Below are positions 8,085 to 9,162 of a DNA stretch of 64,000 bases, one piece after another. This DNA is from a virus (lineage: Duplodnaviria; Caudoviricetes). The position numbers and the translations under genes were made by a program. The DNA is taken from positions 1 through 64,000 of the IMG/VR virus record IMGVR_UViG_3300025936_000016. The stretch is one strand, 5' to 3'. Positions within the stretch are counted from its first letter, which is position 1. Each line of letters begins with the position of its first letter. The notes beneath the pieces were generated by a model that saw nothing but the letters and a program-made list of their open reading frames with translations, made no database searches and was not told where the DNA came from.

Positions 8085-9162
8085 TTCCGGCCAGGACCAA
8101 TGGCACCTCTCATGCCCATCGCTGAGACTTCCTGGCCGGGCTCAGAGGTCTAACCTCACCCAACGTGCTTGCAGTCTGGCCAGGCCCGCATGATCATCTT
8201 CATCCATTTACCCGACGCCCTGGCCAAGCTCATCAAGACTTCATCCATCCAAGGAAATGACAGTTTGGCCAGGACCAACACTCGAACGGTCGTCAACGTA
8301 ACCCCGTCCTGGCCAAGGGCTCAAAAGTGCGCCGTAGCCCAGTTGTGTCTCAGCCCCTGGCCAGGTTCAGCATGACTGTTGCTCCCAAAACATCACCGAC
8401 CTGGCCAGGTTCATCGCTAAAGCCAGTCCCAAATGGGAGGCAGTCTGGCCAGGGTCCCGTCGTAGAGCAGTGCCCAGTCCACCCCCGGCTCTGGCCAGGC
8501 TCCACCGCATCATCAACTCCAAATGACGTTCAGCTTGGCCAGGTTCATCCCAACACCAATGCTCACGTAAAAGGCAACCTGGCCAGGTCCACTGTCCACA
8601 CTTGTCCACAAGGGACGCTCGCCCTGGCCAGGGTCATAATCGGTACTTCTTCCATTCTTCCGACACCTTGGCCAGGGTCAAAAGCCTATCGAAATGCTCA
8701 TCCTTCATACGCCTTGGCCAAGGTCATATCCACTACTCTTCCTCATTCGCCCATCACCTTGGCCAGGGTCTGCTCCATGACTCCACCCACTGAAGGAACA
8801 CCCTGGCCAGAGTCATTGAGCCTCCAGCATCCATTGCGCTCCCACTTTGGCCAGGGTCTGCTCCATGTCTCCATCCATTGAATGAACACCTTGGCCAGGG
8901 ACCAATCGTCGCTCAATACCCGTAGTCGGTGCGCCTTGGCCAAGGCCACAGTAGCTACTCATACTCGGAGCTTCCCCGCCTTGGCCAAGACCAGTACCCT
9001 GCTAGCGCTCAAATGCCGCCGTCTTGGCCAGGCCCAGACCATCGACAGCCCTCACTCAAGCATCAGCCTGGCCAAGTTCGGAGCATCGATAGTTCCCAAT
9101 TAACCAACAGCTTGGCCAAGCTCAACTCATCGGCAGTTCTCAGATCACAAATAGCTTGGCCA
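8085..9162 (+). repeat. TIGR-like dual-spacer guide array 1 (25 edge repeats, 24 units)
   Basis: GGCC cores at 8089, 8134, 8178, 8222, 8267, 8311, 8359, 8403 ... 9070, 9114, 9158 (period 43-48, mode 44). Unit = CRCYYTGGCCARG-NYCA-[9 nt]-C-N5-YCA-[9 nt]. Confidence 0.88.

Follow-up and report, generated by a model that had tools for sequence, protein, structure and literature searches.

The 64-kb window analyzed here (64,000 nucleotides) is the start of a 104,655-bp virus record (104.7 kb), which CheckV rates as complete. Its portal protein is ~32% identical to the portals of Actinoplanes and Arthrobacter phages, and the source genome is that of an actinophage-like virus. The genome carries ~60 stem-loop tigRNA units in five arrays with two stem families (TGGCCA and GGGCCC). 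Four of the arrays lie inside the window, and the fifth lies outside it, beside a nuclease-less tasA gene at 102-103 kb of the genome. Array 1 (8176-9160, plus strand) consists of 22 stem-loop units, each 43-48 nt long and arranged head to tail, with a palindrome centred on TGGCCA, and array 2 (10274-10410, plus strand) has three units of the same family. A plus-strand cluster at 9176-12323 encodes TerD (9176-10219), a vWA-TerF-like protein (10447-11199) and DUF475/TerC (11148-12323); TIGR arrays occupy the gaps upstream of TerD and, in the case of array 2, between the TerD and vWA-TerF genes.

Array 3 (35341-35998, minus strand; ~14 units of the GGGCCC-centred family) is located between two minus-strand tRNA genes, and array 4 (42704-42959, minus strand; six units of the GGGCCC family) lies in a minus-strand tRNA cluster and adjoins a vWA-like gene. 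Both arrays are embedded among 34 tRNA genes at 31701-45498 of the window, all on the minus strand; the guides of these two arrays probably share transcripts with the tRNAs, from which tRNA-processing RNases would release them. The tRNA at 45264-45336 has the anticodon CTA and would read amber codons, and two minus-strand proteins with ricin-type beta-trefoil lectin domains (34119-34670 and 38619-39362) are also encoded among the tRNA genes. Array 5 (genome 103219-103864, minus strand), of the GGGCCC family, is directly upstream of tasA on the same strand, and arrays 1-4 are remote from tasA.

The units follow a common grammar. The borders of array 1 units coincide with the centre of a YYTGGCCARG palindrome, and the palindromes of the second stem family, in arrays 3, 4 and 5, are CTGGGCCCAG. 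An array 1 unit reads stem-YCA-[9 nt spacer A]-C-N5-YCA-[9 nt spacer B]-C(A/G)-stem, and the same layout is found in every regular unit, on the plus strand for the TGGCCA family and on the minus strand for the GGGCCC family. Box C is YCA before both spacers and CCA in most loops, and box D begins with C or T, followed mostly by A, not G. The match to the published motif, with CNA as box C and YG as box D, is therefore partial, as box D is mostly CA here, in contrast to the CG/TG used by TIGRFinder. In arrays 1 and 2, 93 of 100 variable positions are paired in the stem that closes a unit, as compared with 73 of 92 for a hairpin across the junction, indicating that covariation is in the closing stem of the two-spacer units; the GGGCCC family, whose stems are 5 bp long, gives no information in this test. 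The GC content of the spacers (0.46-0.51) and of the loop filler (0.47) is much lower than that of the genome (0.62), and the spacers are G-poor on the RNA strand. An extra unit-like element with a 12-bp stem, TCA-GAGGTCTAA-CCTCACCCA-ACGTGCTTG, is present at 8142-8175, just 5' of the first regular unit of array 1.

The tasA gene (genome 102159-103100, minus strand) encodes P0001, a protein of 313 aa that matches the Nop part of TaTasR (PDB 9mty, cited in Faure et al. 2025, PMC12045711) with E=4.9e-7; a profile of the 27-member P0001 family matched the same structure with E=1.3e-16. The alignment begins with residue 53 of P0001 against about residue 136 of TaTasR, past its RuvC domain, and this start downstream of the nuclease domain makes P0001 TasA-like. 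P0001 also shares long motifs with PlTasA, as compared by eye. No Pfam domain was detected in P0001, and the Pfam Nop domain (PF01798) was not detected in a six-frame search, as expected for such a divergent family. P0001 has more than 1400 homologues, those listed being without a recorded Pfam domain, and those in bacterial genomes are almost all from Actinomycetota. On these sequence grounds, the system can be assigned to the stem-loop class of TIGR-Tas, TasA subtype, a kind that has already been published. The units are presumably expressed and loaded on TasA, whose activity would be expected to be DNA binding or repression rather than cleavage, in line with the DNA binding or repression demonstrated for TasA proteins from other sources (Xu et al. 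2026, 10.64898/2026.09.09.750476). The tasA coding sequence itself contains a unit that follows the array grammar, TCA-GCGTACTGC-CGATGCCCA-TGGTACCCA, with a stem of 10 bp (minus strand, genome ~102615; L003 ~2615). Similar intragenic tigRNAs have been reported for BlTasA in the same study.

As CCA and UGG are complementary, the motifs look almost alike on both strands, and the RNA strand had to be tested. The RNAs of the PlTasA array have been sequenced, and this array has the layout stem-CCA-N9-CG-N4-CCA-N9-CG-stem (Faure et al. 2025, PMC12045711), and the arrays of this phage, stem-YCA-N9-C(N)-N4-CCA-N9-C(A/G)-stem, have the same layout as the processed array. A strict form of this grammar, applied to 75 IMG/VR loci that contain TasA relatives, recovered 310 clustered units, every one of them on the tasA strand. 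All five arrays are co-directional with their neighbouring genes, and the stems of arrays 1 and 2 on the plus strand contain 14 G-U pairs versus 4 A-C (p=0.015). The RNA strand is thus the orientation used in the original prediction, as five lines agree: the PlTasA grammar, the 310:0 scan, the neighbouring genes, the run of tRNA genes and the G-U excess. The opposite strand, on which UGR follows each spacer, was favoured at first and was ruled out by the PlTasA grammar, the 310:0 test, the tRNA and gene context and the G-U excess.

In the original prediction, every unit defines a single contiguous 18-bp target that is read on opposite strands, with the join rc(A)+B. The first part agrees with the experimentally established TIGR-Tas rule (Faure 2025, PMC12045711), and the second reverses the published order. 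The TaTasR oligonucleotide tigRNA1 of Faure et al. (Table S3), AGCCA-UGCAAGCCC-UGAAACCCA-UUGCCUUAG-UGCG, has the target strand TGCAAGCCC followed by ctaaggcaa (PMC12045711), from which it follows that the published geometry is A+rc(B) on the RNA strand. The geometry of PlTasA is the same: its first paired spacer base is located at the junction where the DNA is unwound. We infer that A+rc(B) is also valid for the TasA orthologue of this phage: spacer A would pair with one DNA strand and spacer B with the other, and the 18-bp target strand would be A followed by rc(B). The canonical target of the unit at 8763 is then GCTCCATGA+TTCCTTCAG, with CTGAAGGAA+TCATGGAGC on the other strand, whereas the join originally proposed, TCATGGAGC+CTGAAGGAA, has the halves swapped. 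Because nine is a multiple of three, the codon reading of each half is identical in either order, and an argument from frame or codons is therefore unable to discriminate between the two joins.

Two pairs of related units had drawn attention to the arrays. Pair 1, in array 1, consists of the plus-strand unit at 8763-8806 (spacer A GCTCCATGA at 8772-8780, loop CTCCACCCA, spacer B CTGAAGGAA at 8790-8798) and the plus-strand unit at 8851-8894, two units downstream (A GCTCCATGT at 8860-8868, loop CTCCATCCA, B TTGAATGAA at 8878-8886). The 5' box C of both is TCT, not TCA, a variant absent elsewhere in array 1. Between the two units, 3 of the 18 spacer positions and 1 of the 6 in the filler are different (repeat family D1, 89%). 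Pair 2 consists of two adjoining minus-strand units of array 4, which in RNA sense are A CGGCGCTAC, loop CGGTATCCA, B AACTACCGA (42792-42833) and A CGGTGCTCG, loop TGGCATCCA, B AACTACCTT (42834-42875); the differences are 5 of 18 in the spacers and 2 of 6 in the filler (repeat family D15, 83%). The original prediction had the spacer letters and positions of both pairs exactly (42799-42867 for pair 2), its translations (SWSLKE/TWSLNE and VAPNYR/RAPNYL) are correct, and the similarity is real: the most common spacer distance over 1770 unit pairs is 13-14 of 18, and ~0.2 unit pairs with five or fewer differences are expected by chance.

The reading of these pairs as synonymous codon variants is not supported. 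In the frame originally used, the changed codons are S/T, L/L and K/N in pair 1 and V/R, A/A and R/L in pair 2, so that each pair has one synonymous versus two non-synonymous changes. When random substitutions were placed on the same 18-mers, at least one synonymous change arose in some open frame in 82% of trials for pair 1 and 95% for pair 2 (30% and 75%, respectively, when only the two full-length frames were considered). Furthermore, the arrays contain not two related pairs only, as had been thought, but at least seven, in arrays 1, 3, 4 and 5. With both joins and six frames, synonymous changes in seven related pairs outnumber non-synonymous ones in a single stop-free frame, that of the array 4 pair under A+rc(B) (2 synonymous versus 1 non-synonymous). 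A codon signal is absent, and synonymous changes are at chance level.

The distribution of the related units points to another origin. In each of the at least seven related pairs, both members belong to one array and are either direct neighbours or two units from each other; two of these pairs stem from the duplication of one two-unit block. Ten unit pairs have a spacer distance of 7 or less, and eight of these ten closest pairs are in the same array, no more than two units apart (p=6e-9). In array 3, two-unit blocks of 87-90 bp are repeated in tandem with 76-84% identity (D3, D8, D17): the units at 35385/35429 resemble those at 35472/35516, and the units at 35733/35779 resemble those at 35824/35869. 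The filler, defined as six loop positions that are not part of the guides and vary freely between unrelated units, provides a comparison within each unit. Summed over the seven clearest pairs, differences affect 37 of 126 spacer positions (29%) and 12 of 42 filler positions (29%; Fisher p=1), and those in the spacers are evenly distributed over positions 1-9. Spacers of unrelated units are 72% different and their filler 63%, and the filler of related pairs is more similar than this background (p=6e-6). The filler was thus copied too, suggesting whole-unit copying followed by drift, since separate capture of related targets would have left it uncopied.

We consider it likely that one explanation covers these observations: a nuclease-less TasA is accompanied by dual-spacer tigRNA arrays, in which the related pairs are young tandem duplicates that have since drifted. 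Unit duplication followed by drift had been named as an alternative in the original prediction, and it is favoured by the neighbouring position of the units and the equal divergence of spacers and filler. The duplicates, of single units or two-unit blocks, would probably have been born by slippage or unequal recombination between the uniform palindromic stems. Point substitutions would later have accumulated wherever the structure leaves freedom, in guide segments and non-guide filler alike. The grammar, the strand, the Tas homology, the neighbouring related units, the equal divergence and the lack of synonymous enrichment are direct observations. With seven pairs from one phage, the equal divergence may also be compatible with selection on some guides.

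In a related phage contig (L072:2999-3160), the 11-nt stem and the loop are identical in two units spaced 114 nt apart, but their spacers A differ at 1 of 9 positions and their spacers B at 6 of 9. This looks like the replacement or rapid change of one spacer, not even drift, and such very unequal divergence suggests that drift is perhaps an incomplete account. The near-identical relatives (L052/54/55/56 and L079/81) show no more than a single spacer-base difference, not enough for analysis.

Searches for targets gave no support to the view that the guides are directed against variants of the same protein-coding genes, as no target was found under either join in any of the collections covered. 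Within the whole 104.7-kb genome, no site with two or fewer mismatches was found for any guide in four joins, and 353 guides of this phage and 75 relatives, searched against 1.04 Mb of related loci, gave nothing above the control joins in a count that leaves out the loci retrieved via the guide pattern itself. A degenerate pattern of pair 1 matched IMG/VR 12 times in four unrelated sequence families as A+rc(B) and 25 times in five as rc(A)+B; all but one of these matches are in contigs of 32-53% GC, and one is a real variant of A+rc(B) and none a real variant of rc(A)+B. The four 18-mers of pair 2 had no exact match in IMG/VR under either join. Among 50,697 phage genomes of INPHARED, three of the four guides in both joins gave none, the sole match spanning the artificial junction of the query. 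In 401 Actinomycetota genomes, only one-mismatch matches occurred, four for A+rc(B) (one in the reversed-pattern control) and six for rc(A)+B (three in the control), and a search of JGI metagenomes with one guide in the canonical join returned two unrelated matches. Thus, rc(A)+B did not rise above A+rc(B), an outcome that the original prediction had named as refuting it, and the matches are at chance level in all of these searches. These null results leave room for real targets and are not evidence of their absence; targets of 18 nt have been described as swamped by false positives (Xu et al. 2026, 10.64898/2026.09.09.750476).

Paired units might instead have been acquired or selected separately against allelic or homologous variants of one protein-coding gene, their differences mirroring the codons of the target. 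Each pair can indeed be read in an open frame with one synonymous change, and single mismatches mostly abolish TIGR-Tas activity (10.64898/2026.07.30.739390), so that drifted duplicates would recognize different, related sites and might be retained by the phage if target variants exist. However, the one array 4 frame apart, none of the stop-free frames of the seven pairs has more synonymous than non-synonymous changes, and neither the shared non-guide filler nor the odd box C of pair 1 is predicted by independent acquisition. The related pairs are always neighbours, entire two-unit blocks are repeated, and no matches to homologous genes were found in IMG/VR, INPHARED or the 401 Actinomycetota genomes; we therefore regard separate acquisition as quite improbable. 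Gene conversion, by which neighbours would swap short patches via identical stems and related pairs would be old units that are partly converted, would leave similar patterns. The nearly identical stems across the units of an array offer homology for exchange, some pairs are alike in one spacer only (at 9028/9072, A differs at one position and B at four), and 8828-8856 resembles 8872-8900 (D20). Two-unit blocks of 87-90 bp repeated in register with even identity along their length are nevertheless the signature of tandem duplication, and homogenization as the main source of the pairs seems unlikely to us, although the two processes are not exclusive and one genome cannot separate them.

It could also be asked whether the arrays carry guides at all. 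They might be elements acting at the DNA level, such as protein-binding iterons, terminator or attenuator hairpins, or recombination sites, in which case the 9-mers would hold no targeting information. The TGGCCA and GGGCCC palindromes might be sites for protein binding or restriction, the searches returned no target of any guide, and spacers and filler are equal in low GC and in divergence rate. We give this possibility very little credence, since the units match the validated PlTasA tigRNA grammar position by position, a TasA homologue adjoins array 5 on the same strand, and the grammar is confined to the tasA strand in the 75 related loci. In addition, the covarying stem closes the unit and is not a local palindrome, and the strand-specific G-U excess indicates RNA.

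The system is close to known members of its class, with some differences. PlTasA, from a Peromyscus leucopus gut contig (Faure 2025, PMC12045711; Guan et al. 2026, 10.64898/2026.08.11.744272), is likewise a nuclease-less Tas of the same sequence family. Its units have the form stem-CCA-N9-C(G)-N4-CCA-N9-C(G)-stem, its arrays are split into sub-arrays, and its 9-nt spacers A and B pair with opposite DNA strands over one unwound stretch, as the sequence suggests for the present system. In contrast to PlTasA and the IMG/VR relatives, whose stems vary by unit, the stems of this phage are nearly identical within an array, there is no linker, and the junctions are perfect palindromes. Two stem families serving one tas gene and a box D that is mostly CA also differ from PlTasA. 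Compared with described members, the ~60 units occupy five loci, four of them far from tasA in the TerD/vWA/TerC operon and the tRNA cluster, and this remoteness is atypical. TaTasR (PDB 9MTY) and SpTasH share the Nop-domain core, the dual-spacer logic, the A+rc(B) geometry and the lack of a PAM. The units of TasR and TasH systems are 36 nt long, their edge and loop repeats are conserved, and a nuclease (RuvC or HNH) is present, whereas the system described here has a closing stem and variable loop filler and is without a nuclease domain. Like CRISPR, it is a phage-carried set of tandem arrays in which short repeats are separated by variable guide segments; unlike CRISPR, it has two spacers per unit and is without Cas1/Cas2 adaptation machinery, and new units seem to be born by duplication and mutation, not by leader-end capture of foreign DNA.

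The origin of TIGR spacers and the growth of the arrays were called unknown in the founding paper (Faure 2025, PMC12045711) and in a 2026 survey, and a literature search on tigRNA plus duplication found no paper addressing either question. Duplication and drift in this genome are a small new observation on a system that is itself of known kind. Our results lead us to suggest, tentatively, that TIGR arrays, for which no adaptation machinery is known, may gain new guides when whole units or blocks are duplicated in tandem and the spacers then drift. If so, this phage, with uniform stems, no linkers and ~60 units in two stem families, may show birth and divergence at several ages, and young duplicates would form a standing pool of near-cognate guides, which selection could use, for example in tracking escape variants of a target. 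The free variation of the filler makes it usable as a neutral yardstick within the arrays, and against it the related guides look like duplicates drifting neutrally, not like target-captured sequences. If this proved general across genomes, searches for natural targets would change, since most spacers need match nothing, and so would the comparison of TIGR with CRISPR.

A second assembly of the same phage (L042; JGI 3300005340, 100,047 bp) is 100% identical; the identity extends over array 5, so that it offers no view of array change. This assembly joins genome positions 4573-7041 to the reverse complement of the genome end via a 126-bp overlap, located at 6916-7041 of the window and at 104530-104655 of the genome. 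The join points to an inverted repeat with two possible arrangements, or to assembly ambiguity. At the other end of the window, a single ORF of 4428 aa (54604-64000, continuing to genome position 67890) contains Ala/Lys-rich tandem repeats of 15-33 nt.
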